Source of the DNA: an uncultured Eubacteriales bacterium
GTDB lineage: Bacteria > Acidobacteriota > Aminicenantia > Aminicenantales > Aminicenantaceae
Reading direction: 5' to 3'
Length of the DNA: 64,000 nucleotides
Assembly: GCA_964456985.1 (NCBI GenBank)
Contig: CAYWDH010000005.1
Location: 17,247-81,246 of the forward strand
Below are positions 11,174 through 34,133 of this stretch, piece by piece (the first letter of the stretch is position 1; each line of letters begins with the position of its first letter). The notes below the pieces were generated by a model. It did no database searches and was not told the DNA's origin. It worked only from the letters and a program-made list of their open reading frames with translations. The translations under genes were made by a program, and so were the position numbers.

Positions 11174-13192
11174 ATGACTGAACTTGTTTGGCAAGGCAAG
11201 TATAATAATGATTTAAAAACGTCTCCTGTACGTATAGCATTGCCATTCCAAACTATTGAGACAATAAATGAAAGTACTCAACAACGGCAAAAAACATTAG
11301 AATTGTTTGCTTTAGGAAAAGAAACTGATTGGCGGAATAGATTAATTTGGGGAGATAAAAAATATGTATTACCTTCCCTTATGCCGGAATTTGCTAATAA
11401 GTTAAAACTAATTTATATTGACCCTCCTTTTGATACAGGGGCAGATTTTTCTTTTAAAGCCAAAATACCTGATAATCCACAGACTGAGGAAGATGAAACA
11501 ACAACATTTATTAAACAACCAAGCATTATTGAACAAAAAGCCTACCGTGATACTTGGGGTAAAGGGTTACAATCATATCTTCAATGGTTTTATGAAACAA
11601 TTGCTCTTCTTTATGAACTGCTATCTGAAGATGGTAGTATTTATATTCATATTGATTGGCATATTGGACATTATGCAAAGATAATATTAGATGAAGTATT
11701 TGGATACGATTCATTTAAAGCTGAAATATGTTGGAAAAAAACTACTAAAACTACTTCCTTTAAAAACTATGGTTCAGAACATGATGTAATACTTTATTAT
11801 GTAAAGTCTCCAGATAATTATATTTTCAATCAGGTCTTTAAACCCTTGAAAAAGTCAGAATTATTAACTAAGTACAGATATTTAGAAAGGCCTAATGGTG
11901 AAATTATAACTCTTAACAAAGAACAAAGAGAAGGAAGAAATTTACCTGAAGGCAGACGATTAAGAGGTATCCCATTAACAAATATGAATCCTAATCGTCC
12001 AAATTTAAAATATGAATTCTTAGGTCACACAAGAGTATGGGCTGCGAGTAAAAAAAGGCTAATGAAATTATATAAGGAAGGGAGAATATTCCAAATAGGC
12101 AATAGCCTTCCAAAGAAAAAAGGATATTTAGACGAAAATAAAGGAGCAAAAGTCAACGATGTCTGGGATGATATTAATCCAGTTAATTCGCAAGCGAAAG
12201 AGAGGACTGGTTATGACACACAAAAACCTGAAAAGCTTTTAGAAAGAATTATCTCAGTTTCTACAAATCCAGGTGATTTAGTACTTGATTGTTTTGTTGG
12301 TTCTGGAACTACAGCAGCAATTTCAGAAAAATTGGAGAGGAGATGGATTGCTTGTGATTTGGGGCGTTTTGCAATTCATACCTCACGTAAACGCCTACTT
12401 GAACTTGACAATTTAAAACCTTTTGTAGTTCAAAATCTTGGAAAATATGAACTTCAACACTGGATAGATGCAAAATTTTCTCGTTCTAAAAATCGTTTCA
12501 TTCAGGAAAAAGCATATAAGAATTTTATAATTGAACTTTATCATGCTCAACCAATTACAGGTTACAATTATCTACACGGTATAAAATCAGGAAGGATGAT
12601 TCATGTTGGTTCAGTAGATGCTCCTGTTTCTCTTGGAGATATAAAAGCGTGTATAAAAGAATTTTGGAAATCAGTTGGTAAGTCTCCTGATATCAAAAAA
12701 AATGGAATTGATATTTTAGGGTGGGACTTTGCCTTTGAAATAAATGAGACTGCTAAACAAATTGCTTCTGAAAATAAAATTGACCTAAAATTTAGAAAAA
12801 TACCACGTGAAGTTTTAGATAAAAAAGCAGTTGAACAAGGAGATATAAAATTTTTTGAGATGGCATGCTTAGATATAAAACTCAATCAGAGTGGAAAAAA
12901 TGTTACCCTTAAGCTCAATAATTTTGTTGTTCCTCCTGATGATTTACCTAAGGATGTTCAAAAAAATATCACTCATTGGCGTCAATGGATTGATTATTGG
13001 GCAATTGATTGGAATTACAGAGATGATACTTTCCACAATGAATGGCAAAGCTATCGTACAAAAAATGACTCACAGATTGAATTGCAAGTTACTCATAACT
13101 ACAGTGAACTAGGCCAATACATGATATTAGTTAAGGTAATCGATATTCTCGGGAATGATACCACTAAAATGCTAAAAAATGATATAAAATAA
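11174..13192 (+). CDS. Type III restriction-modification methyltransferase (Mod-like, N6-adenine)
   Basis: IYIDPPF catalytic motif precedes DCFVGSGTT SAM-binding motif (beta class); TQKPEKLL; overlaps the helicase gene by 1 nt. Confidence 0.88.
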   Translation: MTELVWQGKYNNDLKTSPVRIALPFQTIETINESTQQRQKTLELFALGKETDWRNRLIWGDKKYVLPSLMPEFANKLKLIYIDPPFDTGADFSFKAKIPDNPQTEEDETTTFIKQPSIIEQKAYRDTWGKGLQSYLQWFYETIALLYELLSEDGSIYIHIDWHIGHYAKIILDEVFGYDSFKAEICWKKTTKTTSFKNYGSEHDVILYYVKSPDNYIFNQVFKPLKKSELLTKYRYLERPNGEIITLNKEQREGRNLPEGRRLRGIPLTNMNPNRPNLKYEFLGHTRVWAASKKRLMKLYKEGRIFQIGNSLPKKKGYLDENKGAKVNDVWDDINPVNSQAKERTGYDTQKPEKLLERIISVSTNPGDLVLDCFVGSGTTAAISEKLERRWIACDLGRFAIHTSRKRLLELDNLKPFVVQNLGKYELQHWIDAKFSRSKNRFIQEKAYKNFIIELYHAQPITGYNYLHGIKSGRMIHVGSVDAPVSLGDIKACIKEFWKSVGKSPDIKKNGIDILGWDFAFEINETAKQIASENKIDLKFRKIPREVLDKKAVEQGDIKFFEMACLDIKLNQSGKNVTLKLNNFVVPPDDLPKDVQKNITHWRQWIDYWAIDWNYRDDTFHNEWQSYRTKNDSQIELQVTHNYSELGQYMILVKVIDILGNDTTKMLKNDIK

Positions 13193-15759
13193 TGCCGAAA
13201 AAAAGAACAGCAAAAAATCAAAAATATCTTTTTGATATTAAAGAATATCTCTCCACAGCTCATTGTGTCCCTGCTATAAGGGAAGCAGTGGCTGAATGGA
13301 GAGAAGGAGGATATAAAGGAATCACTAAAACCACAAAAGAGCTTCTAAACTTCTGGTTCTATTCAGACCATATATTACCAAACGGCAATAAATTTAGTTA
13401 TTATTTATGTCAACAAGAAGCTATTGAAACGATAATTTACCTTTACGAAATAGAAAATGTCAGAACGAGAAAAGACTTATTAGAGCGTTTCGCATTTAGT
13501 ACAAAAGACTTGCGTCTTCCTCCAATTGATAAGTTTGGTCGATACTGTATTAAAATGGCTACAGGAACTGGAAAAACAAAGGTAATGGCATTAGCTATAG
13601 TGTGGCAATACTTAAACGCAGTCAGAGAGGATGATAATAAATTTGCCAAAACATTTCTTATTATAGCTCCAAACGTAATTGTGTTTGACCGATTAAAAGT
13701 TGATTTTCACGGAGGCAGAATATTTAAAACAGACCCTATGTTTCCAAAACACTTTGAATTATTCTGGGATTTTCAATTTTATATGCGTGGAGATAGCGAA
13801 AGAGCCAGCAGTGATGGTGCCCTTTATCTTACTAATATCCAACAATTTTATGAACGGCCTTCAAAAATTAAAACTGAAGAGCCAGAAGTTTTAACTACTC
13901 TATTAGGTTCGAACCCGAAAAAACAAATATCAGAAATTACTGATTTTAATAAGCGTATCACAAAACGTAGTGGACTTTTAATGGTTCTAAATGATGAAGC
14001 CCACCATACTCATGATGAAAACAATGAGTGGAATAAAGCTATTCACAAAATTCATGATATTAGGAATGTATCTTTACAGCTTGATTTTTCTGCAACTCCG
14101 AGATACTCAAAAGGCTCTCTATTTGCATGGACTATTTATGATTATCCGCTTAAACAGGCTATTGTCGATAACCTCGTGAAACGTCCAATAAAAGGGATTT
14201 CAGAAATTGAGGAAGCAAAGTCAGAAATTTCTAGCGTAAAATATGTAGGATTTCTTACAGCAGCTGTTGAAAGATGGAGAGAATATCGCACTCAATTAAA
14301 GCATTTATCAAAAAGTCCAGTTCTCTTTATTATGATGGCAAATACAAAAGAAGCAGATGAAATTGGAGATTGGATTCAGTCCAAGTATCCATCAGATTTT
14401 GGAGGCAATAAAACATTAATTATTCATACGAAATCATCGGGAGAAATAACCCAAAGAGATTTAGAAAAAGCCAGAAGAGTTGCTCGAGAAGTTGACCGAG
14501 ACGAATCTCCTGTAAATGCAATAGTAAGTGTTCTTATGTTAAGAGAAGGTTGGGATGTTAAAAATGTAACCGTAGTTTTAGGTTTAAGACCATATACGGC
14601 TAAGGCAAATATTTTGCCTGAACAGACTATTGGGAGAGGTTTGAGAATGATGTTTAAGGGATATGCGTCCTCTTATGAAGAACGAGTTGATATTATCGGA
14701 AATTCAGCTTTTCTTGAATTTGTAGATGACTTAGAAATTCTTGAAGAACTAACACTTGAAACCTTTGAGGTTGGAAAAGAAAAACTGAAAATTTCAACCA
14801 TTATGCCAGTTGATAAGAAAAACAACTATGATATTGGAATCCCTGATATTTCGCCCACATTAGCTCGAAAAAAATCTTTATCTGAAGAAATAAATAATTT
14901 AGATGTAATGTCGTTTGACATTAATCCTTTGCCACTTAAAGAAAAAGGAGAGGAGGAGATAAAAACATTTATTTATGAGGGTAGAGATATTTTAACTGAT
15001 GAGAAATTATTAGAAAGAGAATATGAAATACCAAAATCTCAAACCCCAGAAGAAGTTATTGGATATTATGCGAAAAGAATTGCTCAAAATGTTAAATTGC
15101 CATCCCAGTTTGCATCTCTCGTCCCCAAAATAAGAGAATTTTTTAAGAAAAAAGCATTTGGCAAAATAGTTAATTTAAATGATGACGTTGTGATTCAATC
15201 AATGAGTACAAATGTAGCAAGTTACGTTGTATTGAAAGAATTTGAGAAAGCAATAAGAGACCTAATCATAGAAGAGAAAAAGCCTGAACTTTTAGCACCA
15301 AATAGATATTTATCTGCAACCACACCTTTTCCTTTTTCAAAAATAATTATGAAAGCGAGTAAATCTGTATTTAACTATGTTACTTGTGATAATAAATATG
15401 AAGAGTCATTTGCCAAATTTCTTCAATCTGCAAATGATGTAGCTGCTTTTGCAAAGCTTCCAGAACAATTCGGTTTCTGTATTCAATATACAGATAAACG
15501 GGCAAATATTCGTCATTATTACCCCGATTTTGTGACAAGACTTATAGATAATAAACATTGGTTGATAGAAACAAAAGGAAGAGAAGATATTGAAGTAAAA
15601 CTAAAGGATAAAGCAGCAAGGAATTGGTGCGAAAATGCGAGTTTTTTTACGGAAATTGATTGGAATTACATGAAAGTATTACAGAAAGATTTTGATAACT
15701 TGCATCCATCTTGCTTTAATGAATTAAAAAATGCATTGTTTCATCCTGAATTAATTTAA
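13192..15759 (+). CDS. Type III restriction endonuclease subunit (Res-like SF2 helicase plus PD-(D/E)xK nuclease)
   Basis: MATGTGKT Walker A, DEAHH, SATP, LREGWD, EQTIGRGLR, and C-terminal PDF...IETKG. Confidence 0.9.
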   Translation: MPKKRTAKNQKYLFDIKEYLSTAHCVPAIREAVAEWREGGYKGITKTTKELLNFWFYSDHILPNGNKFSYYLCQQEAIETIIYLYEIENVRTRKDLLERFAFSTKDLRLPPIDKFGRYCIKMATGTGKTKVMALAIVWQYLNAVREDDNKFAKTFLIIAPNVIVFDRLKVDFHGGRIFKTDPMFPKHFELFWDFQFYMRGDSERASSDGALYLTNIQQFYERPSKIKTEEPEVLTTLLGSNPKKQISEITDFNKRITKRSGLLMVLNDEAHHTHDENNEWNKAIHKIHDIRNVSLQLDFSATPRYSKGSLFAWTIYDYPLKQAIVDNLVKRPIKGISEIEEAKSEISSVKYVGFLTAAVERWREYRTQLKHLSKSPVLFIMMANTKEADEIGDWIQSKYPSDFGGNKTLIIHTKSSGEITQRDLEKARRVAREVDRDESPVNAIVSVLMLREGWDVKNVTVVLGLRPYTAKANILPEQTIGRGLRMMFKGYASSYEERVDIIGNSAFLEFVDDLEILEELTLETFEVGKEKLKISTIMPVDKKNNYDIGIPDISPTLARKKSLSEEINNLDVMSFDINPLPLKEKGEEEIKTFIYEGRDILTDEKLLEREYEIPKSQTPEEVIGYYAKRIAQNVKLPSQFASLVPKIREFFKKKAFGKIVNLNDDVVIQSMSTNVASYVVLKEFEKAIRDLIIEEKKPELLAPNRYLSATTPFPFSKIIMKASKSVFNYVTCDNKYEESFAKFLQSANDVAAFAKLPEQFGFCIQYTDKRANIRHYYPDFVTRLIDNKHWLIETKGREDIEVKLKDKAARNWCENASFFTEIDWNYMKVLQKDFDNLHPSCFNELKNALFHPELI

Positions 15760-15864: not shown

Positions 15865-16311
15865 ATGAAGATTGAAGCAGAGAAATATGAAGTCATTTTT
15901 GGCTCTAATTTTATATCAGAATGTCCAAGAGTGATTAAATTAATTGGGAAAGGAATAAATAAACAAATCATGAGGTTCAGAGAAGGTGAAGATGGGAAAA
16001 TTCTATTTGATTGTACTGTTAAAGATAAAAAAGGAAATACAGTTACTAGGATTGCAAACAGCTTAACTCAGTATGTTATGAAAGGATATAAAACCCAAAT
16101 TACTGATGATGGGATTAAAGTAATAAATAAAAATACAGGAGATATTTGGTTAGAGTTCGCTTTTGTGAGCCCAAGAAAATTTAAGTTAAATGGGATTTTT
16201 TTCTTGCCAGGATACAAAATAGTTGCAACTGATGAATATTTAGAAATCAACACAAATAGGATTTCTAACTGTAAGTTTTCAAGCTGTTCTGCCGCGATAG
16301 GGCTTGTTTAG
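15865..16311 (+). CDS. Hypothetical protein
   Basis: RBS aaggagg; 148 aa with beta-rich pattern; no family recognised. Confidence 0.75.
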   Translation: MKIEAEKYEVIFGSNFISECPRVIKLIGKGINKQIMRFREGEDGKILFDCTVKDKKGNTVTRIANSLTQYVMKGYKTQITDDGIKVINKNTGDIWLEFAFVSPRKFKLNGIFFLPGYKIVATDEYLEINTNRISNCKFSSCSAAIGLV

Positions 16312-16329: not shown

Positions 16330-16370
16330 GGGAAGCCAGAGACTTTTTAACTCTGGCCTCCCAGATTTTT
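16330..16370 (+). terminator. Intrinsic terminator
   Basis: gggaagccagag...ctctggcctccc stem followed by a T-run. Confidence 0.65.
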
Positions 16371-16462
16371 AATAGACAACGTTACGCTGGAAAATAGCCT
16401 CATAATAGAGGACACACGAAAGTGGAAAAATTTCTCATAAAGGAACCAACAACTAGATTTTA

Positions 16463-17185
16463 ATGTCTCAGAAAAAATCAACAATAGAAATTAAATATTT
16501 ACTTGAAAGAAATACAGGAGTATTTAAGTTTGTTAATCATGACAAAAATGTAATTAAAATTGCTGTGAATCATGGCTGGCTTCCTGGAGCACGTTATACA
16601 CATTTGAGGAACATTAAAATATTTAATAGGTTAGGTTTTCTTGATATTGACTGGAAAAGATATGATTTCAAAAGGCATTTAAAGGCAACGAAAATGACTA
16701 GACCTTTTATGACAGTAGCACGAGATGTTCTAGATAAAAGAGAGCTAAATAAAATTATAGATGAAGCTTTCTCCTTACAAAAATATGCTAAAATAGTTAT
16801 AATAGTTCCGAAAGATAGAAAATTATCATGTCATATAAATAATATAATACCTAAGAATTTTTTATTGGGTTTTAGCGTTACCAGTTCATATGGGGAAACA
16901 AATATTGAACCTAAATACTTTAATAGGCCAGTCCATCTCCTCGGTGGTCGTCCAGAGGTTCAACGCAATCTTGCAAATTTGATGCCAGTAGTGTCATTTG
17001 ACAACAATAGATTCACTCTAGATGCTATCTATGGAGATTACTTTGATGGGCAAATATTTCGACCCCATCCTAATGGAGGTTATATAAGTTGCATTAGAGA
17101 TTCAATAATAAATATAAATAGATTGTGGGAGGATTACAAACCTCCTTATTGGGAATATTCTACAAACTTTAAATTGGAGACATAA
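16463..17185 (+). CDS. DUF6610-like protein with motifs reminiscent of a TGT-type TIM barrel
   Basis: GFLDIDWK, VARD, VHLLGG and SFDNN motifs; family recalled from memory, not searched. Confidence 0.55.
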   Translation: MSQKKSTIEIKYLLERNTGVFKFVNHDKNVIKIAVNHGWLPGARYTHLRNIKIFNRLGFLDIDWKRYDFKRHLKATKMTRPFMTVARDVLDKRELNKIIDEAFSLQKYAKIVIIVPKDRKLSCHINNIIPKNFLLGFSVTSSYGETNIEPKYFNRPVHLLGGRPEVQRNLANLMPVVSFDNNRFTLDAIYGDYFDGQIFRPHPNGGYISCIRDSIININRLWEDYKPPYWEYSTNFKLET

Positions 17186-17187
17186 TT

Positions 17188-17862
17188 ATGGACGACAAGG
17201 AAAAATTCCGTAGAGAATTTTTAATTAATATGTACAACCAAATGTTTAATGATATTAATAGGCATATTACTGTCACTTGGCAATCTATTACTACCTTTGT
17301 TGGTGCATTCGCTATTTTTGCCTTAGCAGAGAGAGAAATTATAAGTGTTGACATTGCTTCTACTTTAGTTGTCTTAATATGTGGCTGGCTCATAGCACAC
17401 GTCATTGACGCTTCATATTGGTATAATAGAAATCTCGCTATTATTGCAAACATAGAAAAGGAGTTTTTAGAAAAAGATGATTTATGGAAAATTCATTATT
17501 ATTTCGGTCAACACAGACCTAAAAATAGAATGATTCACCATCTAAAAATACAATTTTTTTTCGGACTAACCCTAGGATTATCTATACTAATTTTCCATTT
17601 TCTTACAATAGTAATTCCAAGTTTATATTTTTCATTAAGTTTAAAAAGTATAGATTTGAGTAAATGGTTTCCCTATATAGCTCTTATTGTTATTTCAATT
17701 TATATTGTTTGGGTGATAAGACATAGGTCATCAAGTTATAAGGAATTTCTAAAAAATTCACCTGGGATAAAGGTTGATACAACAGACATTATTTATGGAA
17801 AAGGTCATGCATTTGGATTTATGAGAAAAATCAAGAGAAAAAAAAATGAGGAAAGTATATAG
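17188..17862 (+). CDS. Multi-pass membrane protein, candidate defence effector
   Basis: About four hydrophobic segments; begins 2 nt after the preceding stop codon. Confidence 0.7.
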   Translation: MDDKEKFRREFLINMYNQMFNDINRHITVTWQSITTFVGAFAIFALAEREIISVDIASTLVVLICGWLIAHVIDASYWYNRNLAIIANIEKEFLEKDDLWKIHYYFGQHRPKNRMIHHLKIQFFFGLTLGLSILIFHFLTIVIPSLYFSLSLKSIDLSKWFPYIALIVISIYIVWVIRHRSSSYKEFLKNSPGIKVDTTDIIYGKGHAFGFMRKIKRKKNEESI

Positions 17863-19716: not shown

Positions 19717-20181
19717 TTGACTATGTCTAAGGCTGATTCTGGAAGGGATTCACAAGGAAGATTTACGAAGGGGAATAAAGCCGCCATAAAGCATTATTGC
19801 CATACGTTTCTTGTAACAAATAGACTCCCTAAAATTCGTGGAGTAAGGAAGATTCAGAAGAATCTGGATAGGGTCAGAAAAGAGCTTGAGTCTAGTGTTT
19901 CCAAGATGACTGTCCAGAAGCAAATCCTGATTGACCAAATCGTAAAAACACAGGGTTTTTGCTCACTATTCGAGCTATATGCCAGAAAGATGGGATTATT
20001 TGACCCCCAGGATGGTAAAAAAGGAAAAATCTCTTTTATGCCAGGATTCAAGACTTATATCAGTCTGTTAAACAGTCAGCGGAGGGCATTATTTGCTCTT
20101 GGGTTAGATAGACAGGCTCAAGAGCAGATTTTAACTCCGCTCGAAATCACACAAAAGGAGAGTGGAAATGAAAGATATTAA
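19717..20181 (+). CDS. Putative terminase small subunit
   Basis: GRDSQGRFTKGNKAAIKH N-terminal motif typical of TerS-like proteins; directly upstream of TerL. Confidence 0.6.
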   Translation: MTMSKADSGRDSQGRFTKGNKAAIKHYCHTFLVTNRLPKIRGVRKIQKNLDRVRKELESSVSKMTVQKQILIDQIVKTQGFCSLFELYARKMGLFDPQDGKKGKISFMPGFKTYISLLNSQRRALFALGLDRQAQEQILTPLEITQKESGNERY

Positions 20182-20326
20182 GACTGTTGATGATTTACGA
20201 AGGGAGTATCCAAAACTTGTAAAAGAGATTGAAGATAACGCTCTCATTAGTGGAGGGAAAAAGCACTCATTTGACAGAGAGATACGGAGAGCTAAAGCAC
20301 AGGCAAGGAGACTAGCTGGAGTATAG
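20168..20326 (+). CDS. Small protein (52 aa) between terS and terL, not in the ORF track
   Basis: Own translation MKDIKTVDDLRREYPKLVKEIEDNALISGGKKHSFDREIRRAKAQARRLAGV; RBS ggag; overlaps the terS end and stops 1 nt before the terL ATG. Confidence 0.6.
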   Translation: MKDIKTVDDLRREYPKLVKEIEDNALISGGKKHSFDREIRRAKAQARRLAGV

Positions 20327-20327
20327 A

Positions 20328-21920
20328 ATGAACATTATTCAAGCTCTCGATGACGAAAGATTTTTCAAAGGTCTGTTCAAAGATTCTTCCACCTGGGCGT
20401 CATGGAGAGTTTTTCTCAAAGCATTATTCGGACTTCCAATTGAAGACAAAAAGGAACTTGAGCTTTTCAGGAAATGCACAGGAAGAAAAGAATTTTTATC
20501 TAAGCAAGCTAGAGAATGTTACGTAATAGCAGGGAGACGCTCAGGAAAGTCCTTCATTTCTGCGGTTATCGCTGTATATTTAGCCTGTTTTTTTGACTGG
20601 ACACCTTTTCTAACTACGGGGGAGCTGGGTTCTATTTTCATTATTGCAACGGATAAAGAACAGGCTCGTATTGTTAAGGCTTATATAGACGGGATTCTTA
20701 ACTCGACTCCACATCTTGCGAAAACAATAGAAAAAAGCCTTGTTTGGGAAATTGAATTGAACACAAGAGTAAACATTGCAATCAAAACCGCTTCATTCAA
20801 AACTGTCAGAGGATTCACATTGTTAGCTGTCATAGCTGAAGAACTTGCATTTTGGAGAGATTCAGAGACCTCTGCAAATCCAGCTCAAGAGATTCTAACC
20901 GCACTAAGACCCGCACTTTCAACTATTCCTAATTCTCTCCTTCTTGGAATTTCCACTCCATACAGCCGTTCGGGAGTTCTTTGGGAACATTTTCATAAAC
21001 ACTATGGAAACGACGAAAGAGAGGCTCCTCTAGTCTGGCAAGCTGACACTTTTACTATGAACCCTACAATAAACAAATCCATCATTGAAAACGCTCTCAG
21101 AGATGATTACTCAGCGGCTTCTGCTGAATGGCTTGCCAGATTTAGGGATGACCTTGAGCAGTTCTTATCATTAGAACTTATCGAGCAAGCAGTCATCCCT
21201 GGACGTATCGAACTTCCAAAGATTGCAGACACTCGGTATTTTGCTCATTGTGACCCAAGTGGAGGACGTGGAGACTCAATGACCCTGGCAATCAGTCACA
21301 AGGATTCAGACAGTCAGAAAATCGTCCTGGATGCTGTCAGGGAAGCCAGACCCCCTTTCGTACCCAGAGATGTGGTCAAAGACTTTTCCAAGGTTTTGAA
21401 AAGTTACGGAGTCGAGCGTTTACAGCTTGACCGTTACGCCGCAGAGTGGACTGTTTCAGCTTTTAGAGATGAAGGAATCATGCCAGAGTCGGTAAAGAAA
21501 TCAGCTTCTGAGCTTTATATAAATTTCTTGCCTTTGATAAGCAATCGAAGCATTGAACTCTTAGATAATAAACGACTCGTTTCACAATTTAAATCCCTGG
21601 AGCGAAAAACAAGGAGTGGAGGGCGAGATTTAGTTGACCACCCTCCAGGAGCACACGACGATTTGTCAAATGCTACTGCTGGGGCTTGTGTCCTTGCCTC
21701 TGAGATTCAAGAAAATGATTCAGAAATCATTCTCTCACTTCTAGAAGCAGAGGCGGAATCTATCTTGACAGATGAAGAGGAGCTTGAGCGGCGTTTTACA
21801 ACCTGGCTCTTAGGTGGTGAATTACCTCCGACAAAAGAGGAGCAAGAAGGTAAACCCAGGCAGGGAAAACCAAGGACAGTTTTGACAGTAAGTGAATGGG
21901 ACAGAAGAAATGATAAATAG
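20328..21920 (+). CDS. Terminase large subunit
   Basis: AGRRSGKS Walker A, AVIAEELAFW Walker B, LGISTP coupling motif, RNase-H-like nuclease DPSGGRGDS and HDDLSNA. Confidence 0.88.
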   Translation: MNIIQALDDERFFKGLFKDSSTWASWRVFLKALFGLPIEDKKELELFRKCTGRKEFLSKQARECYVIAGRRSGKSFISAVIAVYLACFFDWTPFLTTGELGSIFIIATDKEQARIVKAYIDGILNSTPHLAKTIEKSLVWEIELNTRVNIAIKTASFKTVRGFTLLAVIAEELAFWRDSETSANPAQEILTALRPALSTIPNSLLLGISTPYSRSGVLWEHFHKHYGNDEREAPLVWQADTFTMNPTINKSIIENALRDDYSAASAEWLARFRDDLEQFLSLELIEQAVIPGRIELPKIADTRYFAHCDPSGGRGDSMTLAISHKDSDSQKIVLDAVREARPPFVPRDVVKDFSKVLKSYGVERLQLDRYAAEWTVSAFRDEGIMPESVKKSASELYINFLPLISNRSIELLDNKRLVSQFKSLERKTRSGGRDLVDHPPGAHDDLSNATAGACVLASEIQENDSEIILSLLEAEAESILTDEEELERRFTTWLLGGELPPTKEEQEGKPRQGKPRTVLTVSEWDRRNDK

Positions 21921-22053
21921 AAGCTTATATCTAACGACGTCCACACCAAAAAGACTGTCCTTCTTTTTCAGGTGTTTTATGCCTATGGAGCAGGGCGGCT
22001 GTTTTTTAAAAAGAACAGTCGCCCTTCCTCCTAAGGTCAAAAGAGAGTGAAAA

Positions 22054-22656
22054 ATGACAAAGAAAGAAATTGAAAAAATCCTTATAAGCAAGATTCTGGA
22101 AAATCCTCATTTTATCCGCTTCGATAAAGCTCCGGCCGTTTACCCAGAACATAATGAACATGCAGGGTTACTCTGGAAGATTTTTTACCTTTTCGAGACC
22201 AGAACATGGACAAGACTCAGCAGGGAAAATGATGGTTTGATTTTGTCTGTTTTGGATAAAATCGCAAAGGAAGGGAAAGCTAAATTTTTCAGTGTGGAAC
22301 TCACAAAAGACATGCATCATGATGACATTCGCTTCAGGTGTGAAATCGGGACAGCGAAAAGGACAAACGGAACCTGTGATGTTAAACAAACAACTATAAG
22401 GCTCTATTCGGATGAACCTCTTACAAAAAAAGAGAAGAAAGAGCCTTACACTATTCTGAATGTTAAAGAGCAATTTGAGAAAATAAGAGAGGAACGAGAC
22501 AAGGCATTCAGAAAAGAGTTCGGATGGAGATACGACTTCGACCTCGAAAAGAAACTCCGCAACCAGGAGCTAAAAGCTCAATCTGAACTGAGACGAAACA
22601 TACGAGCAATCAGAAAATGGACTCAGGAACATGATGAAAAACAAAAAAAGGCTTAA
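22054..22656 (+). CDS. Hypothetical protein of the element core
   Basis: 200 aa ORF with a charged, coiled-coil-like C-terminus. Confidence 0.7.
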   Translation: MTKKEIEKILISKILENPHFIRFDKAPAVYPEHNEHAGLLWKIFYLFETRTWTRLSRENDGLILSVLDKIAKEGKAKFFSVELTKDMHHDDIRFRCEIGTAKRTNGTCDVKQTTIRLYSDEPLTKKEKKEPYTILNVKEQFEKIREERDKAFRKEFGWRYDFDLEKKLRNQELKAQSELRRNIRAIRKWTQEHDEKQKKA

Positions 22657-22749
22657 TATAAAATGGCTCATACTGGTTTTTCAAAGAATAAAGGGGCAGT
22701 CGTTTTTCTAACTTGTAACGACCGCCTCGACTAAAAGAGCAAAGGAAAG

Positions 22750-22884
22750 ATGAGTTATAAAAAGCTTTCAGTCCCAGAAATTAAGAGAGAAAATCCCTGG
22801 GGATATCTCAAAGATAGAATCAGGTTTTTTATTTGGCTTTTAAAGTGGAGTGTCATTCTTTTAATTTTAGGGGTTTGTTTTTAA
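22750..22884 (+). CDS. Possible 44 aa single-pass membrane peptide
   Basis: Own translation MSYKKLSVPEIKRENPWGYLKDRIRFFIWLLKWSVILLILGVCF; aaagga upstream. Confidence 0.4.
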   Translation: MSYKKLSVPEIKRENPWGYLKDRIRFFIWLLKWSVILLILGVCF

Positions 22885-22906
22885 TATGGAAAAAATCTTT
22901 AATCAT

Positions 22907-22949
22907 AGCCAAGAAGGGGAGGTCATTGCTTCTATCCTCCCCTCTGGCT
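22907..22949. terminator. Hairpin, probable terminator
   Basis: agccaagaaggggagg...cctcccctctggct inverted repeat. Confidence 0.5.
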
Positions 22950-23130
22950 CTTCAAAAAATTGGGTTTTTTTGAAAAATGATTAAAATAATAGATAAGGTC
23001 GCTCCGTCGTTTGGAGTGATGGTCATTTAGAACCCAGTTCTGGGTTGGTCATTAGGCTCGAAAAATCGAGCGGTTCCTTGAACTTGCGTTCAGCAAGTGG
23101 TGAATTAAAAAATTTAATAGAAAGGAGCCA

Positions 23131-23571
23131 ATGGCTATGATTAAAAATCCAAACTCAAACCCAAACCTGGGAAGAAGAAATCACCAAACAGCCGTTACTT
23201 TTGATGGTGTACATTACGGACAAACACCAATTGATTTGCTCGCAGACCCTAATATTAAACCACAGCTAAAAGTTTTATATTCAGCTTATCATTTACACTG
23301 TCCGCAAAAATATCTAAGTTCAAATCCGTTTACCTTCGTCAGTCAAAAAAGAATCGGCAGAGAATATCTTGGATGGAGTCAACAAACAGTTTCATATTGG
23401 ACAAAAAAACTTGCAGAGGAAGGCTGGCTGACAATCATAAGACTCGGACAAGGAAAATCCAACATCATCATTTTACACGATAGAAAAGGGAAGCGTATTA
23501 CAGCAAAAGAGCGGAAAAATTTCATCAAATCTGTCAAACTTCAACAGGCTAGATACCAATCCTCTTTGTAA
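23131..23571 (+). CDS. Winged-HTH protein, putative replication initiator / replisome organiser
   Basis: SQKRIGREYLGWSQQTVSYWTKKLAEEGWL HTH pattern; followed immediately by iteron-like repeats. Confidence 0.6.
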   Translation: MAMIKNPNSNPNLGRRNHQTAVTFDGVHYGQTPIDLLADPNIKPQLKVLYSAYHLHCPQKYLSSNPFTFVSQKRIGREYLGWSQQTVSYWTKKLAEEGWLTIIRLGQGKSNIIILHDRKGKRITAKERKNFIKSVKLQQARYQSSL

Positions 23572-24085
23572 CTAGATACCAACCCTCTTTGTGCTAAATA
23601 AATAAGAATAAATAAATAATAAATTTATTATTATCTTTTTTAAGATTTAAATAAATTTATTATTTATGAATAGAAGATATAATGTAATGTATATCTTCTA
23701 TTTACCCTGTGTAATACGCTCTCATACTGTAATACACACTGTAATACACACTGTATTACACACTGTATTACACTTTGTATTACATCCCTCGCTTCGCTCG
23801 GGGAACGCCTTCGGCGTCTCTGAATCTTAGAAAGTTTACTGAACAGACCCTTCAGCATTATTTCAACTTCAGCATTATTAGAAAATGTCCAGAATGTCCA
23901 GATATCAGGAATGTCCAAAATGTCCAGAATGTCCGAAAAAAGGGGACAAAAAGCAAATTGAGTTTACTCAAGAACGACCTTTAAATTAGTGTAATACAGA
24001 GAGTGTATGTAATACGTCCTTAATATAGCTGTAATACATTTCTACCTCAGGGTAATACACAATAATTTTATAGTGTAATACACAA
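23549..24085. repeat. Origin-like region with three families of short direct repeats and an AT-only tract
   Basis: 2x ctagataccaa(t/c)cctctttgt (23549, 23572); AT-only tract ~23596-23670; tandem 12-mers ctgta(a/t)tacaca ~23727-23775 plus scattered gtaatac; aatgtcc repeats ~23884-23934. Confidence 0.75.
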
Positions 24086-24130
24086 TTTCAATCAAAAATA
24101 GCCGTTTTTCATACTCTCACACTGGAGAGA

Positions 24131-25552
24131 TTGAAAATGGATTCTTTACTAAATACAAAACAGCTTTCAGAATACTTAGGAGTATCCAAAAGCACAGTAT
24201 ACAGATACATAAAAAATCTCGGTCTCCCTTACTATCAAATCCAAGATTCAAAACTCCTATTTAAAAAGGAAGAAGTTGATGAGTGGGTGAATCATCACAA
24301 AACAACGTACAAGCTTACTGACAAAATTTTAAATAATTTGTTGACAAATCCTGTTCGAGAAAATATTGATAAGGTTGAAGGAGGTCAAACAGTGGCGAGA
24401 AAAAAGACTCGTCACAATTACGGCTATGGTTCGGTTTATGTCAGGAAAACAAAAAAGGGAATATCAAGGTATTACATCGAGTATTACGATTCAGAAGGAA
24501 AAAGGATTCAGAAAGTAGTAAAAAATGCAGTTGATTGGAATCCTGCACATGAGGCTTTAAGAGATGCTGTCTACAAAGTACATTTCCATAAAATTGACTC
24601 AAAAATTCAAAAGAAAACTATCAGATTTAAATCATTCTCTGAAATCTATCTCAAAGACTATGCTATGAGAAAAAAATCATGGGAACGCTCGGAAAAAGTG
24701 TATTTGAACGCCAGCCTTATCCCCTACTTCGGAAAATATAAAATCAGAAAAATCACACAGCACCACATTGAGCAATTCATTCGTGAGAGACAAGAAAATG
24801 GAGTTAAAAAATCAAGTATCAATCGTGAACTTTCATGTTTGAGTATGATGTTCAAGAAAGCTATCAGTTGGGGATATTTGAGCGAGAATCCATTGGAACA
24901 TATCAAGCGATTTAAGGAGAAAGATAACATGAGGGAAAGAGTCCTGTCAGAAAAAGAAGAGTCAAGGCTTTTAGAAAATTGTGCAGACCATCTGAAGCCT
25001 ATCATCATCACCGCTCTTAACACCGGAATGAGGCTAGGAGAGATTCTACAGCTCAGATGGAGTCAAGTTGACTTTAACACAAGAAGAATCAAAGTAGAAA
25101 ACACAAAAAGCGAAAAGAACAGGGTCATTGGAATCAATGAAGACCTGTACAATGTTTTGAAGCAAAGAAACACTCAAAATCCTTATGTATTCCCGAATCC
25201 TAGCACAGGAAAAGCACTGACTACCGTAAAAACGTCATTCAAAACTGCTTGTAAGAGAGCGGGGATTGAAAATCTGCGTTTTAATGACCTAAGACACACA
25301 TTTGGAACTAGACTCATTCAGAATGGAGTAGACATTGAAACGGTGAGAGATTTAATGGGTCATCACAGCATCGTTGTCACTCAAAGGTACCTTCATACGA
25401 ACGATGAAAGAAGGCGGCTAGCTGTTGAATCATTGACCAATAAAGGGACAAAAAAGGTACAAATCTGTGACACGAACTGTGACACGGGGACAAAAAGCGG
25501 AACACCCAAAAATAACAAAACCCACCCAAATGTATTATTTTCAGCCAATTAA
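24131..25552 (+). CDS. Tyrosine integrase with an in-frame N-terminal excisionase-like HTH
   Basis: LLNTKQLSEYLGVSKSTVYRY (Xis/HTH_17 pattern); catalytic residues in TGMRLGE, FNDLRHTFG, MGH and TQRY; internal aaggaggt-N6-GTG start at 24392. Confidence 0.92.
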   Translation: MKMDSLLNTKQLSEYLGVSKSTVYRYIKNLGLPYYQIQDSKLLFKKEEVDEWVNHHKTTYKLTDKILNNLLTNPVRENIDKVEGGQTVARKKTRHNYGYGSVYVRKTKKGISRYYIEYYDSEGKRIQKVVKNAVDWNPAHEALRDAVYKVHFHKIDSKIQKKTIRFKSFSEIYLKDYAMRKKSWERSEKVYLNASLIPYFGKYKIRKITQHHIEQFIRERQENGVKKSSINRELSCLSMMFKKAISWGYLSENPLEHIKRFKEKDNMRERVLSEKEESRLLENCADHLKPIIITALNTGMRLGEILQLRWSQVDFNTRRIKVENTKSEKNRVIGINEDLYNVLKQRNTQNPYVFPNPSTGKALTTVKTSFKTACKRAGIENLRFNDLRHTFGTRLIQNGVDIETVRDLMGHHSIVVTQRYLHTNDERRRLAVESLTNKGTKKVQICDTNCDTGTKSGTPKNNKTHPNVLFSAN

Positions 25553-25834: not shown

Positions 25835-26974
25835 GTGGATAATTCATTACTAAAATCGTATGATTGGGACTTTGTAGATACCTCTTCAAGTAATGGAGTT
25901 CACTCAATCCACTCATACCCTGCTAAATTTATTCCTCAAATACCTCGTCAGTTAATTAAATTATTTGCAAATGACAAGAGTAGAGTAATTCTTGATCCAT
26001 TTTGTGGCTCAGGAACTACGCTTGTTGAAGCAATTCTAAAGGGATTTGATGCATGGGGAATTGATATAAATCCAGTTTCTTGTCTTATTTCAAGGGTTAA
26101 AACTAGGCGTCTTCCAAATAATTTTCTATTTGTTTTGAGACAAGTGCTTGAAGAGGCAAAAGAGCATTATGCAAACAATACAGTCATACTTCCTGAAATC
26201 CCTCGATTAGACCATTGGTTTAAGAAAGATATTCAAAAAGCTGTTAAAGCTCTTTTAGATAAAATCAACTTGCAGGAGAGCATCCTAATAAAAGAAGGCC
26301 TACAGGTTGCTCTCTCGAAAATTTTGGTACAGGTTTCTAATCAGGAAAGTGATACGCGATATGCTGCTGTCGAAAAAAACGTAACCTATCTAGATGTTTT
26401 TGTTAAATTTGAGAAGGCCGCAGTGATTGTCTTCAATGAATTATCCAAAATATCAGATGACCTCTTTAAAAAGCTTGGCAAAGCCGTGGTGATAAATAAA
26501 GATATTATGAAGACCAAAGGCAAAGATTTGCCTGATAATATCGGTTTAATCATTACTTCACCCCCATATCCGAATGCATATGAGTACTGGCTTTATCATA
26601 AATATAGAATGTATTGGTTAGGAATGGACCCAATAAAAGTGAGAGAGAATGAAATAGGCGCTCGACCTCATTATTTTAAGAAAAATCATCAAGATGAAAG
26701 GGACTTTGAGAATCAGATGAGTAAATGTTTCGAACTTCTGTCACGAGTAATGATAAAGAATGGAAAGGCATGTTTTCTCGTAGGAGATTCTGTTATACAT
26801 GGGAAAACGATTGATAACTCTTTAATATTACATCGAGCGGCAGAGCCATATGGATTTAAAGTAATCGATGAAGTCGAACGCAATATCTTAGTCACACGAA
26901 AGACATTTAATCCAAAACATGGAAGATTAAAAAAAGAAACAATCTTGGTGTTTTCTCTTAATGAAAAGATATGA
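25835..26974 (+). CDS. DNA methyltransferase 1 (probable N4-cytosine)
   Basis: HSYPAKFIP, DPFCGSGTT and TSPPY motifs. Confidence 0.88.
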   Translation: MDNSLLKSYDWDFVDTSSSNGVHSIHSYPAKFIPQIPRQLIKLFANDKSRVILDPFCGSGTTLVEAILKGFDAWGIDINPVSCLISRVKTRRLPNNFLFVLRQVLEEAKEHYANNTVILPEIPRLDHWFKKDIQKAVKALLDKINLQESILIKEGLQVALSKILVQVSNQESDTRYAAVEKNVTYLDVFVKFEKAAVIVFNELSKISDDLFKKLGKAVVINKDIMKTKGKDLPDNIGLIITSPPYPNAYEYWLYHKYRMYWLGMDPIKVRENEIGARPHYFKKNHQDERDFENQMSKCFELLSRVMIKNGKACFLVGDSVIHGKTIDNSLILHRAAEPYGFKVIDEVERNILVTRKTFNPKHGRLKKETILVFSLNEKI

Positions 26975-28575
26975 AAGTAAAATTTCACTGGCACAATTAT
27001 AAATATTTCCCATATGAAAAAGACTTAGCTAGACGAGAATTGTTATCCTTAACAAAAACTAAGCCAAAACTAACAAAAGAGAATATAGCTGTAGAAGCTC
27101 CAAATAGCTGGAAAGATATTGCATTCAGAACTACCTATTTTCGGGAAGCGATAGCAGAAGATGGGACTATAATAATACCCCAACAAGCTCATTTTGAACT
27201 TACAGCAAATGGGGTATCTGAATCAGGGGACTTTGGTGGTTCATTATCCCTTAACCATCAGTCAACCAGATATTCTGCACATGGAATTCACGAATTCCGT
27301 GGAAAGTACAATCCACAGATAGTACGAGCAATAGGCAACATAGTTGGCATTAAACCTGGGGATTGGATTATTGACCCTTTTTGCGGGAGTGGGACGACGT
27401 TGTTAGAATCAGCCCATACTGGTTGGAACGCTGTCGGGATTGAATTGAATCCTCTTGGTGTAGAGATTACAAACGCTAAAATTGCCTCTATAAAAGTGCC
27501 TGAAGACATGTTAATTGCTGAAACTACAAAGTTAAAAGAGAATTTGAAAAAAAAATGGAATTCTTATTCTTTCGAAAAAGCATTTTTAAAAAAACAAATT
27601 GATTCATTACAAAAAACAAGTCTAGATAATATATTTCTCAATTGGAATTATCTTAAAAAGTGGTTTTCTGGGTCAGTACTAATACAAGTTGCATCTATAG
27701 TCGAAGAAATAAAGAAGCTTTCTCTTCCAGACATACAAAATATATACAAAATATTCTTGAGTGATATTTTGCGTCATGTTTCTTTTCAGGATCCTGGAGA
27801 TTTAAGAATAAGGCGAAGGAAACATCCTGCTCCCAATTATCCTGTAATACCATTATTTGTTGAATCCATTTCATCAAAAATAAAAAATATCATATTAGCC
27901 AGAAAATTCATTTCAGATGATAAAACTTATCAAAAAGCGATTCTTGAAGATACCCGATATATTTCAGAGAGAATCAATGAACATAAAATGCCTAAGGATA
28001 GTGAAATTTTTGATGCTGCTATTACAAGCCCTCCTTACGCTACTGCACTCCCATATATTGATACTTCTAGATTGAGCCTTACTCTGCTCAACTTTATAAC
28101 ATCAGATATTATTCATAAGACAGAAAAAAAATTGATTGGAAGTAGAGAAATTACCGAAAAAGAGAGGCAAAGTTATTATGAATCCATTGTCACTAATCGA
28201 AATAAACTTCCTAAAGAATGCATTAATTTGTGTAGAAGGCTAAGAAATGCAGTTAATTTTGAAACAGACGGATTTAGAAGAAAAAACGTTCCTGCTTTAC
28301 TTTATAAATATTTTGTAGATATGCAATTGACATTTAAACAGATGTCCAATCTCCTTCGTCTTCATGCGCCTTATGCAATTGTTATAGGAATGAATAGGAC
28401 AACACTTGGTGGTAAAGAATTTATTATTAATACCCCTCTGTTGTTGACTCGCCTGGCTGAAGAAAGCGGATTTTCATTAGAGAAAAAAATTAGATTGAAT
28501 ACATATCAGCGTTTTGACATTCATAAATTGAATTCAATTAGGGATGAAATATTGCTAATTTTAAGGAAAACATAG
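26971..28575 (+). CDS. DNA methyltransferase 2 (probable N4-cytosine) with N-terminal extension
   Basis: HEFRGKYNP, DPFCGSGTT and TSPPY motifs; ATGA overlap with MTase 1. Confidence 0.88.
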   Translation: MKVKFHWHNYKYFPYEKDLARRELLSLTKTKPKLTKENIAVEAPNSWKDIAFRTTYFREAIAEDGTIIIPQQAHFELTANGVSESGDFGGSLSLNHQSTRYSAHGIHEFRGKYNPQIVRAIGNIVGIKPGDWIIDPFCGSGTTLLESAHTGWNAVGIELNPLGVEITNAKIASIKVPEDMLIAETTKLKENLKKKWNSYSFEKAFLKKQIDSLQKTSLDNIFLNWNYLKKWFSGSVLIQVASIVEEIKKLSLPDIQNIYKIFLSDILRHVSFQDPGDLRIRRRKHPAPNYPVIPLFVESISSKIKNIILARKFISDDKTYQKAILEDTRYISERINEHKMPKDSEIFDAAITSPPYATALPYIDTSRLSLTLLNFITSDIIHKTEKKLIGSREITEKERQSYYESIVTNRNKLPKECINLCRRLRNAVNFETDGFRRKNVPALLYKYFVDMQLTFKQMSNLLRLHAPYAIVIGMNRTTLGGKEFIINTPLLLTRLAEESGFSLEKKIRLNTYQRFDIHKLNSIRDEILLILRKT

Positions 28576-28576
28576 A

Positions 28577-31651: not shown

Positions 31652-31749
31652 AGGGTAAAAGTTTTACATCATTTAAAGAAAACGCGTTATACGGCATCTG
31701 AGAGCCTGTTTTTTTTAAGCTTTAAAAACACAGAAAAAAGGAGATAATC

Positions 31750-32508
31750 ATGCTTCATCAACCCATTATGGATAAACTATTCGCGCTTAAACTCAATGGA
31801 ATGCTGGAAGGACTGCGGGAACAGATGGAAAGCCCGCAGTACAGGAAACTGAGTTTTGATGAGCGTTTCGGTCTTCTTCTGGACCGAGAATGGGACCTTC
31901 GGCAGAAGAGAAAACTGCACAGGAGAATGCGAGTGGCCCGGTTTAGAGAACAGGCTGCTATAGAGGATCTTGAAATATCCGCTAAAAGAGGGCTGGATCG
32001 CAAACAAGTTCTATACATGGCAGAGTGCAACTGGATCAGAGAAAAGCTCAACACACTCATAACCGGTCCTACAGGAGCCGGGAAGACCTATCTGGCCTGT
32101 GCTCTTGGAAATGCCGCCTGTCGAAATGGACTGACGGTCCGTTATTTTCAGCTCTCCCGGCTGCTTGAGATATTAAAACTGGCTCGTGCAGATGGATCCT
32201 ATCCCAAAATGTTAGACCAGATCGCTAAATGCCAGCTGCTTATCCTGGATGACTGGCTGCGGAATCGTCTCACAGAAACACAAACCAATGATATCCTCGA
32301 GATCTTCGAGGACAGATATAATCATGGCTCCATCATGGTGGCTACTCAGATCCCAGTGGAAGAATGGCATGAACAGTTTGCCAATCCCACTTTTGCCGAT
32401 GCCATCATGGACAGAATCGTTCACAATGCCTATAGACTGGAATTAAAGGGTGAATCTATGCGAAAACGAAAATCTAACTTGACCCATTCCGGTCACTCGG
32501 AGGTATAA
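31750..32508 (+). CDS. istB: IS21 helper ATPase IstB
   Basis: GPTGAGKT Walker A, LLILDDW Walker B, ADAIMDRIVHNA. Confidence 0.95.
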   Translation: MLHQPIMDKLFALKLNGMLEGLREQMESPQYRKLSFDERFGLLLDREWDLRQKRKLHRRMRVARFREQAAIEDLEISAKRGLDRKQVLYMAECNWIREKLNTLITGPTGAGKTYLACALGNAACRNGLTVRYFQLSRLLEILKLARADGSYPKMLDQIAKCQLLILDDWLRNRLTETQTNDILEIFEDRYNHGSIMVATQIPVEEWHEQFANPTFADAIMDRIVHNAYRLELKGESMRKRKSNLTHSGHSEV

Positions 32509-34105: not shown

Positions 34106-34133
34106 AATCAAAAATTAGTGTCTTTTTTAGAAA

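Follow-up and report, generated by a model that had tools for sequence, protein, structure and literature searches.

A two-gene unit of a minimal DUF6610 (DpdA4-like) barrel protein and a predicted four-helix membrane partner as a candidate mobile conflict module

INTRODUCTION

What might a small barrel protein of the tRNA-guanine transglycosylase (TGT) type do at a bacterial membrane, when its gene is joined to that of a membrane protein belonging to no named family? This question is raised by two adjacent open reading frames (ORFs), here called ORF1 and ORF2, in the genome of an uncultured Eubacteriales bacterium that GTDB places in the Aminicenantaceae (Acidobacteriota). They lie within a stretch of 64,000 nucleotides (positions 17,247 to 81,246 of contig CAYWDH010000005.1, assembly GCA_964456985.1, forward strand), which we refer to as the window and whose numbering is used for all coordinates unless another locus is named. 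The initial annotation, made from the sequence letters, had proposed that the pair is a new anti-phage module made up of a TGT-like enzyme and a membrane effector. Our analysis firmly establishes that the pair is an intact, foreign and translationally coupled two-gene unit, in which a DUF6610 barrel with a TGT-like active site is combined with a dedicated four-transmembrane (4-TM) protein. We tentatively read this unit as a mobile conflict module built around a membrane-coupled base-exchange enzyme that acts on guanine-type bases in nucleic acid, a reading to which we give close to an even chance. The enzyme family is known by name and not by biochemistry, and both the two-gene architecture and the ORF2 family are new; no description of a DUF6610 protein paired with a membrane protein was found in the literature searched.

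RESULTS

Organisation and origin of the ORF1-ORF2 unit

The locus comprises the following features.

16463-17185, plus strand: ORF1, 240 amino acids, a bacterial-type DUF6610 (DpdA4-like) minimal triosephosphate isomerase (TIM) barrel enzyme
17188-17862, plus strand: ORF2, 224 amino acids, a predicted 4-TM inner-membrane protein, partner of ORF1
17176-17179, plus strand: GGAG ribosome-binding site of ORF2, inside the 3' end of ORF1, read directly from the sequence
16352-16375, plus strand: terminator-like hairpin with a T run, from a consensus scan and the sequence, as a pattern match only

Two ORFs separated by 2 nt had been reported in the initial annotation, and this arrangement was confirmed exactly at the coordinates given above. 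ORF1 ends ...GGAGACATAA, with its TAA stop codon at 17183-17185 followed by TT and then by the ATG of ORF2 at 17188, and the GGAG motif is located 8 nt 5' of this ATG. Since the ribosome-binding site lies inside ORF1 and the spacer is 2 nt, translation of the two genes is expected to be coupled; elsewhere, overlaps of 4-14 nt between them are seen. The hairpin stands between an upstream ORF of 148 amino acids and ORF1 and, as far as a sequence pattern can indicate, is the likely 5' boundary of the transcription unit of the pair.

The guanine-plus-cytosine (GC) content is 0.29-0.34 across 11-19 kb of the window, compared with about 0.42 in the flanks, and a DUF6610 gene was found in none of 40 relatives of the source genome, eight of which belong to the same genus. 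The pair is thus a foreign and recent arrival in this genome.

ORF1 is a minimal barrel of the DUF6610 family

ORF1 matches the Pfam family DUF6610 (PF20314) with an E-value of 4.3e-50 and 170.6 bits against a cut-off of 27, over positions 1-198 of the 198 in the model, and this match was also confirmed on the genome. The protein has no membrane segments and an isoelectric point (pI) of 9.7, and bacterial members of the family are likewise basic (median pI 9.2). Our literature search found DUF6610 mentioned only by Hutinet et al. 2023 (PMC10516641), where it is named DpdA4 on the basis of haloarchaeal viruses. The name derives from gp69 of virus HVTV-1, for which HHpred returned DUF6610 at 100% and TGT at 92.5%, and whose gene is located in a preQ1 cluster (PMC10516641). 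We find that gp69 matches DUF6610 with an E-value of 2.7e-56 and that its gene comes after those encoding FolE, QueE, QueD and QueC.

The AlphaFold2 (AF2) model of ORF1, with a predicted local distance difference test score (pLDDT) of 86.9, contains eight strands alternating with helices and describes a minimal TIM barrel of about 200 residues. When this model was compared with BFVD using Foldseek, the top two matches were DUF6610 proteins, namely a ParB fusion (E 6.5e-15) and a protein of HCTV-1 (E 2e-13, TM-score 0.72). The best match outside the family was a phage queuine tRNA-ribosyltransferase (DpdA; E 1.2e-5, TM-score 0.59), and four more proteins of this kind ranked lower. Generic TIM barrels lead the comparison with the PDB (E about 1e-4, TM-scores 0.42-0.55), in which the TGT structure 4q8q appears at an E-value of 6e-3. 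Going by the model, the ORF1 barrel appears closest to the TGT/DpdA fold. The TGT-like fold that the initial annotation had assigned to this protein is therefore upheld by the DUF6610/DpdA4 match, by the eight-strand barrel, by the ranking of a phage DpdA as the best structural match outside the family and by conservation of the catalytic Asp described below. Direct sequence comparisons with other collections gave little: there is no match to the Pfam TGT family (PF01702), a PDB sequence search returned nothing meaningful either with ORF1 alone or with a profile, no match was obtained in PADLOC or NCBIfam, and PHROGs returned only families of unknown function.

Conserved residues outline a predicted TGT-like active site

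Conservation was assessed in an alignment of 34 bacterial homologues and 14 viral DUF6610 domains. All four motifs previously picked out in ORF1 (GFLDID, ARD, HLLGG and SFD) are present, at G58-F-L-D61-I-D63, A86-R-D88, H158-L-L-G-G162 and S178-F-D180, and fall on columns that are invariant among the 34 homologues. The residues common to bacterial and viral members are D61, D88, K117, S138, H158, G161, G162, Q167, S178, D180 and N182; five of these (D61, D88, K117, H158 and D180) are invariant in all 48 sequences and are positioned in the model at the ends of strands 3, 4, 5, 7 and 8, respectively. More generally, the conserved residues of the modelled protein cluster at the C-terminal ends of strands 3-8, and we predict an active site consisting of D61, D88, K117, S138, H158, G161-G162, S178, D180 and N182.

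Judged at the level of sequence, this conserved layout is that of the catalytic and base-reading residues of TGT, DpdA and Cap10. Three active-site Asp residues, which serve as general acid/base, in base recognition and as nucleophile, are invariant in TGT and DpdA. D61, D88 and D180 were equated with D102, D156 and D280 of TGT by strand order and motif (HLLGG...SFD versus YLMGVG...MFD), not by a significant alignment. The ORF1 segment 'RPVHLLGG...SFDNNRFT..A..G' parallels 'PRYLMGVG...MFDCVxPTRxARNG' in TGT, and H158 and D180 are spaced by 22 residues, as are H226 and D248 of Cap10 and Y258 and D280 of the Zymomonas TGT. D165 was considered as a candidate nucleophile and rejected, given that the window protein has Glu there and that viral members do not conserve this position, D180 being invariant instead. 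ORF1 has neither the zinc site (CxCxxC...H) nor the C-terminal subdomain of TGT, its only invariant Cys being C210, and the protein ends about 40 residues past strand 8. An invariant, Arg-rich C-terminal segment, NRFTLDAxxGDYFDGxxFRPHPxGGYxxC, is peculiar to the bacterial clade.

ORF2 belongs to a new family of small membrane proteins

The AF2 model of ORF2 (pLDDT 83.4) contains four helices of membrane length (H32-48, H54-93, H117-148 and H157-190), in agreement with the four or so TM segments anticipated by the initial annotation, and a Kyte-Doolittle scan also gives hydrophobic segments. The modelled chain begins with an N-terminal cytoplasmic helix and TM1; after a short loop, TM2 runs on into the cytoplasm as a long helix, from which a further loop leads to TM3. 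A variable outer loop joins TM3 to TM4, and the chain ends in a cytoplasmic tail. The distribution of charges fits a prediction that both termini are inside the cell. Conservation is concentrated on the predicted cytoplasmic side, where the motifs are YDQMFNDINRH; DAxYWYNRNLxIIANIE, located where TM2 ends on the inner side; HYYFGxHRP; and, in the tail, NSPGIxVDTxGIxYGxGHG.

ORF2 has no family in Pfam, NCBIfam or PADLOC and PHROGs was uninformative, while a Foldseek search of the PDB with the model found no fold match (best E 0.29), so that no likeness to a known effector or transporter emerged from these family and fold searches. Of 1.84 billion clustered proteins, just 551 represent this family, and each of them is short and unfused. 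Homologues are called hypothetical in every source, and a search with a broad profile gave only close relatives. A second subfamily shares about 26% identity, is 275-335 amino acids long and carries one extra C-terminal TM helix; W31, A42, W67, W78, R81, E90 and G193 are the residues that it retains. In one locus (L017, 1129-2829, minus strand) a frame of 567 amino acids resembling this divergent subfamily has a C-terminal metallo-beta-lactamase-like domain with a HAHGDH motif; it could be a real fusion, or an artefact of assembly or read-through.

The two genes are paired across about ten phyla

A scan of 185,579 species genomes (one per species) gave 73 DUF6610 hits in 72 loci. Carriers span about ten phyla and are found amongst the Acidobacteriota, the Alpha-, Beta- and Gammaproteobacteria, Planctomycetota, Gemmatimonadota, Bacteroidota and Nitrospirota, as well as the Omnitrophota, Chloroflexota, Deinococcota and Chlamydiota; culturable carriers include Vibrio mimicus, Pseudomonas aylmerensis, Stutzerimonas nosocomialis, Marinobacter and Limnobacter humi. 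The initial annotation had staked its proposal in advance on the two genes occurring together elsewhere, and this they do: in 72 of 75 non-redundant loci, drawn from the species-genome scan plus five metagenome loci, an ORF2 homologue is adjacent to DUF6610, and both genes are carried by all eight additional loci. ORF2 is usually located 4-99 nt downstream of ORF1 on the same strand, and members of the second ORF2 subfamily are either divergently upstream of ORF1 or about 450 nt downstream. Of the three exceptions, two are contig ends and the third is locus L004 (8001-10454). There, ORF1 is followed not by an ORF2 homologue but by an unrelated multi-TM protein of 178 amino acids, whose gene overlaps the ORF1 stop by 4 nt; the next genes encode a soluble protein of 209 amino acids with an IDIDPFG motif and a paralogue of the TM protein, and none of these is in Pfam. 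All-against-all clustering of ORFs within ±10 kb of the pair in 76 loci revealed no third conserved gene.

The ORF1 and ORF2 distance matrices correlate (r 0.65, Mantel p 0.001), showing at the sequence level that the two proteins co-diverge. Identity between homologues is high, at 50-60% across phyla, and the deep part of the tree built from the concatenated pair is star-like. Different bacterial families share near-identical copies of the pair, for example Marinobacter with Aliidiomarina and Marixanthomonas with Galbibacter. An orphan ORF2 homologue of 51% identity was observed in Gimesia panareensis (L126, 7097-10618), directly 3' of an insertion sequence (IS) of the IS66 type. Because IS66 occupies the expected place of ORF1 and there is no DUF6610 gene within ±10 kb, the pair in this species was apparently broken by insertion.

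The bacterial-type pair was found in none of 50,697 phage genomes and in none of 72,556 plasmids, the plasmid search giving only two distant haloarchaeal matches, and it occurs in one of 2.9 million viral contigs. Distant viral DUF6610 genes sit among replication, methylase and GNAT genes, sometimes with FolE or QueD, and none of 12 such loci in IMG/VR has an ORF2-like partner.

Mobile and defence settings of the pair

In the window, the pair forms part of an island with the order TPR-CHAT protein, type III restriction-modification (RM) system, ORF1-ORF2, helix-turn-helix (HTH) regulator, lone TerL-like gene, integrase, type II RM system, IS21 element and DitA-like gene. The defence cargo slot seen in the initial annotation can now be specified as an island in which two RM systems are accompanied by a DitA-like gene and an integrase, and of which the following features are relevant here.

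11174-15759, plus strand: type III RM system (Mod 11174-13192, Res 13192-15759), directly upstream of the pair
24131-25552, plus strand: tyrosine integrase with an HTH_17 domain (Pfam Phage_integrase, E 2e-37)

The type III system was assigned from Pfam matches to N6_N4_Mtase, ResIII and RE_endonuc and from PADLOC matches to MTase_III (E 4e-101) and REase_III, and is not conserved beside the pair in other loci. The window integrase is homologous to one located directly downstream of the pair in L127, the closest relative for which context is available (66% identity). In L127 the pair has a cI-like S24 repressor region on one side and the prophage integrase on the other, with a staphylococcal nuclease (SNase)-like gene beside it, and in L128 it is the last cargo of an element with integrase, primase and TerL-nuclease genes, akin to the TerL/integrase stretch of the window. 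Other copies are found among WYL regulators, PD-(D/E)XK and GIY-YIG nucleases, a Dam methylase and an ORC/Cdc6-like ATPase; beside three integrases and a transposase; and on a phage contig near a tail protein and a cell-wall hydrolase. Besides the window island, settings of this mobile or defence type are L001, L127, L128, L131 and L111, and the pair thus frequently occupies cargo positions. Integrases are encoded within 10 kb of the pair in 14 of about 62 loci (about 20%), and their density is 2.7 per 100 kb over the nearest 2.5 kb versus 0.4-1.5 further out, a comparison that has no genome-wide control behind it. Only two loci, unrelated to each other, have an SNase-like gene directly beside the pair (L127, 9197-9829; L130, 11881-12657). 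The products of these genes share 29% identity, and they could represent an occasional third component or a coincidence.

Several further features of the window island were observed. The ORF of 148 amino acids between the type III Res gene and the pair (15865-16311) has no family, with weak matches only (PADLOC PDC-S03, E 0.008; phrog_6544, E 0.004); it is not kept beside the pair elsewhere and is unrelated to the SNase-like genes of L127 and L130. The region 19717-25552 contains the lone TerL-like gene (20328-21920, a weak TerL_ATPase match), small ORFs of no known family and the integrase, and no other phage structural genes were seen in it; it looks like a satellite or decayed prophage that serves as the backbone of the island. 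Beside the integrase, the type II RM system (25835-29785) consists of two N6/N4 DNA methylases (PADLOC MTase_II, E 7e-123 and 1e-108) and, after them, a PLD/NgoFVII-like nuclease. The IS21-type element (30119-32508), which encodes an IstA-like transposase with rve and Mu-transposase C domains and an IstB ATPase, has a GC content of about 0.49 inside the low-GC island. Lastly, a low-GC gene pair at 32810-35729 encodes a protein of 431 amino acids with no assignment and then a DUF5677 protein of 531 amino acids (E 3e-20) that matches PADLOC DitA (E 9e-38), and is probably another defence system in the same island.

The pair and the supply of 7-deazaguanine

The source genome encodes both TGT and QueC, the latter away from the pair. 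Que or FolE genes are neither present in the window island nor conserved near the pair among the 75 loci, and no preQ1 or other riboswitch was matched with Rfam in the window or in 16 loci. A true QueC is encoded in about 35 of 50 carrier genomes and is missing from about 13, one of which is the complete 3.4-Mb chromosome OW818651. The idea that the pair depends on endogenous preQ0 was rejected on this basis, since about a quarter of carriers are without QueC. The rate of QueC in carriers (about 70%) is close to that in control genomes and therefore looks like background, which implies no link between QueC and the pair in either direction.

DISCUSSION

Comparison with known systems

The nearest relatives of ORF1 are the DpdA4 proteins of haloarchaeal tailed viruses, such as HVTV-1 gp69, which share its Pfam family, its barrel and its conserved residues. 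Identity to ORF1 is 27-33%, the viral proteins are longer by about 135 amino acids at the N terminus, and their genes are found inside FolE/QueD/QueE/QueC clusters whereas the window pair is not. Bacterial DpdA/DpdB, of the Dpd RM system, resembles the pair in its TGT fold, its three active-site Asp residues and its association with mobile islands, and performs the kind of base exchange on DNA that is proposed for ORF1 (PMC10164549). In bacterial DpdA these residues are D95, D130 and D256, of which D95 and D256 were shown to be essential, and the enzyme requires the ParB-like ATPase DpdB and acts alongside DpdC-K (PMC10164549). The window locus has no DpdB or DpdC-K, ORF1 is about half the size of DpdA, and its partner is a membrane protein.

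A second comparison is provided by Cap10, a TGT-fold enzyme that is essential in the type IV cyclic oligonucleotide-based anti-phage signalling system (CBASS), where it works bound to a partner protein in anti-phage defence (bioRxiv 10.1101/2025.04.06.647259). In Cap10, D73, D122 and K154 read the base and H226 and D248 form the catalytic pair (bioRxiv 10.1101/2025.04.06.647259); together these residues parallel D61, D88, K117, H158 and D180 of ORF1. Cap10 is larger (about 330 amino acids) and depends on further components that are missing beside the window pair, namely a CD-NTase, the QueC-like ligase Cap9 and an effector.

The barrel also occurs in ParB-DUF6610 fusions of cluster-B mycobacteriophages. 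Funsized gp1 has the same barrel residues (E 4.9e-32, 32% identity to ORF1) and, unlike the window pair, has a ParB-like N-terminal domain fused to the barrel and no membrane partner. The gene (L109, 1-1299) is annotated only as encoding a ParB-like nuclease domain protein, and we locate the DUF6610 barrel, with all core residues, at residues 198-383. The protein ranked first in the BFVD comparison with ORF1 is likewise a ParB/Sulfiredoxin fusion of this kind, encoded by an uncultured phage. As bacterial DpdA needs the ParB-like DpdB, the Funsized fusion fits a DNA-directed role for DUF6610. Gene 1 is beside genes for QueF, a separate DpdA-like gp3, QueC, QueD, QueE and FolE, and this 7-deazaguanine cluster thus holds two TGT-like barrels, gp1 and gp3, the former fused to a DpdB-like domain.

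The combination of a soluble protein with a small, co-transcribed multi-TM protein is familiar from lambda RexA/RexB, CBASS, the pyrimidine cyclase system for anti-phage resistance (Pycsar) and Thoeris. The pair resembles these systems in layout alone, including carriage in prophages or islands (in L127 it occupies the repressor-to-integrase arm), and PADLOC and PDB fold searches revealed no likeness in sequence or fold to lambda RexA/RexB or to systems with TM effectors. With respect to the queuosine-precursor transporters YhhQ and QueT/QrtT, ORF2 has no Pfam or NCBIfam match, no PDB fold match and no upstream preQ1 riboswitch.

A proposed mechanism and the evidence that weighs against it

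Going by its residues, ORF1 is predicted to be a catalytically intact, minimal member of the DUF6610/DpdA4 branch of the TGT/DpdA superfamily, and we infer its substrate, its physical contact with ORF2 and its role in defence as follows. Like other enzymes of this superfamily, ORF1 would break the N-glycosidic bond of a guanine-type base through an Asp nucleophile, here D180, and thereby exchange the base. Having neither the zinc and tRNA-binding parts of TGT nor a DpdB-like partner, it would work with ORF2 instead, probably docked on the conserved cytoplasmic face of that protein, and translational coupling would keep production of ORF2 in step with that of ORF1. Tethered to the membrane, ORF1 would target the guanine or 7-deazaguanine bases of nucleic acid, DNA being the likeliest substrate, and the role of the pair would most likely be in conflict with phages or other mobile DNA, either as defence or as superinfection exclusion.

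Several observations weigh against this mechanism. The activity of DpdA4 has never been shown in vitro (PMC10516641). The separate DpdA encoded in Funsized raises the possibility that DUF6610 is not the transglycosylase of that phage. When the DUF6610 alignment was compared using hhalign with 30 TGTs from the phylum of the window the probability was below 1%, the alignments being shallow, and it was still below 1% after 14 viral members had been added. As these comparisons were not significant, the link between ORF1 and the TGT superfamily rests on the published HHpred result, the ranking of folds, the mapping of residues and the viral gene context, and the hhalign alignment served only as a guide to motif order. 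PADLOC-DB v2, which includes Cap10 and Dpd, has no match to ORF1 or ORF2 at E-values up to 0.1, and the part that ORF2 would play, as an anchor, a sensor or a membrane effector, is wholly conjectural.

Genomic context must also be set against the proposed conflict role. Several loci give no sign of mobility, among them Bradyrhizobium, where the pair is located between ychF and maoC, and chromosome 2 of V. mimicus, where it lies between an AbrB-family gene and tkt, at the same site in several strains; the contexts of L002, L124, L130 and L132 are of the housekeeping type. In a tally of the two genes on either side in 38 loci, neighbours are mostly housekeeping genes from 123 Pfam families, among which integrases come top with only four. 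The enrichment near defence genes that the initial annotation had looked for is accordingly partial: it is supported by the integrases near about a fifth of loci and by the mobile or defence-like character of about half of 14 Pfam-annotated contexts, the other half being ordinary chromosomal neighbourhoods. The association of the pair with conflict regions is real in a subset of loci, is not universal and is not formally controlled.

In a more specific and somewhat doubtful form of this proposal, the pair would be a new two-gene immunity or exclusion system centred on a TGT-fold base-exchange enzyme at the inner membrane. One possible route is the excision or swapping of guanine or 7-deazaguanine in incoming DNA, which would strip phage anti-restriction marks or damage the DNA; another is that a product of base exchange triggers the 4-TM partner. 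If true, this would be the first defence system with a minimal DpdA-like transglycosylase as its core catalyst, and a function would for the first time be assigned to bacterial DUF6610 proteins and to the ORF2 family.

Alternative explanations

The alternative that survives best, which we nevertheless consider rather unlikely, is a self-contained modification cassette, in which ORF2 brings preQ0, preQ1, queuine or a similar 7-deazaguanine base into the cell and ORF1 inserts it into the DNA or RNA of the carrier itself, to protect or mark it. DNA modification has precedent in this superfamily, as performed by phage DpdA enzymes, ORF1 is basic with intact catalytic residues, and two genes would be sufficient for the task. 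An independent supply of base would explain the carriers that have no QueC, and ORF2 has conserved acidic or polar residues at both membrane faces (E48, D55, Q32, Q122 and H137). Import is made less plausible by ORF2 itself, which matches no transporter family or fold, has four TM segments only and is most conserved on its cytoplasmic helices and tail rather than in a membrane pocket. Neither riboswitches nor an unusual rate of QueC point to a link with base supply, and the pair is absent from the phage genomes and plasmids searched, an argument that is weakened by its rarity.

It is improbable that the pair is a signal-and-effector system, in which ORF1 would make or sense a base-exchanged small molecule, or modify a protein with a nucleobase, and thereby gate ORF2 as a membrane disruptor leading to abortive infection. 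The shared layout with CBASS, Pycsar, Thoeris and lambda RexAB would suit such a system, and Cap10 shows that a TGT fold can be retargeted from nucleic acid to protein-linked 7-deazaguanine. The cytoplasmic bundle and Gly-rich tail of ORF2 could dock a ligand or an enzyme, and the unrelated multi-TM protein that follows ORF1 in L004 suggests that the role of the partner at the membrane is a generic one. The pair comes without any QueC-like ligase, cyclase or sensor domain, however, and ORF1 has no PADLOC Cap10 match; moreover, the invariant Arg residues specific to its clade and its high pI fit a nucleic-acid substrate better, and TGT-fold enzymes acting on free nucleotides are without precedent.

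An ordinary accessory metabolic or housekeeping function at the membrane, for example nucleobase or nucleoside salvage or detoxification, for which the island location would be incidental, agrees with the many loci that lie between housekeeping genes with no mobile element nearby, with the stable copy in V. mimicus and with identities of 50-60% across phyla, but is likewise improbable given the extremely sporadic distribution (73 hits in 185,579 species genomes and none in 40 relatives), the evidence of transfer between bacterial families, the enrichment of integrases next to the pair and its carriage as cargo by a prophage, by a satellite-like element and in defence islands.

Implications

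Enzymes of 7-deazaguanine chemistry recur in conflicts between phages and their hosts, as illustrated by phage DpdA, the Dpd restriction system, Cap9 and Cap10 of type IV CBASS, and QatC. The pair described here is a compact case, in which a 200-residue barrel with a predicted active site conserved from viruses to bacteria is tied to an unannotated family of membrane proteins. Its function is directly testable, because the pair is small, is present in culturable species and offers obvious point mutants. If confirmed, this function would provide a role for DUF6610, including DpdA4, and a new, membrane-coupled form of base exchange, possibly one that contributes to defence against phages with 7-deazaguanine-modified DNA.

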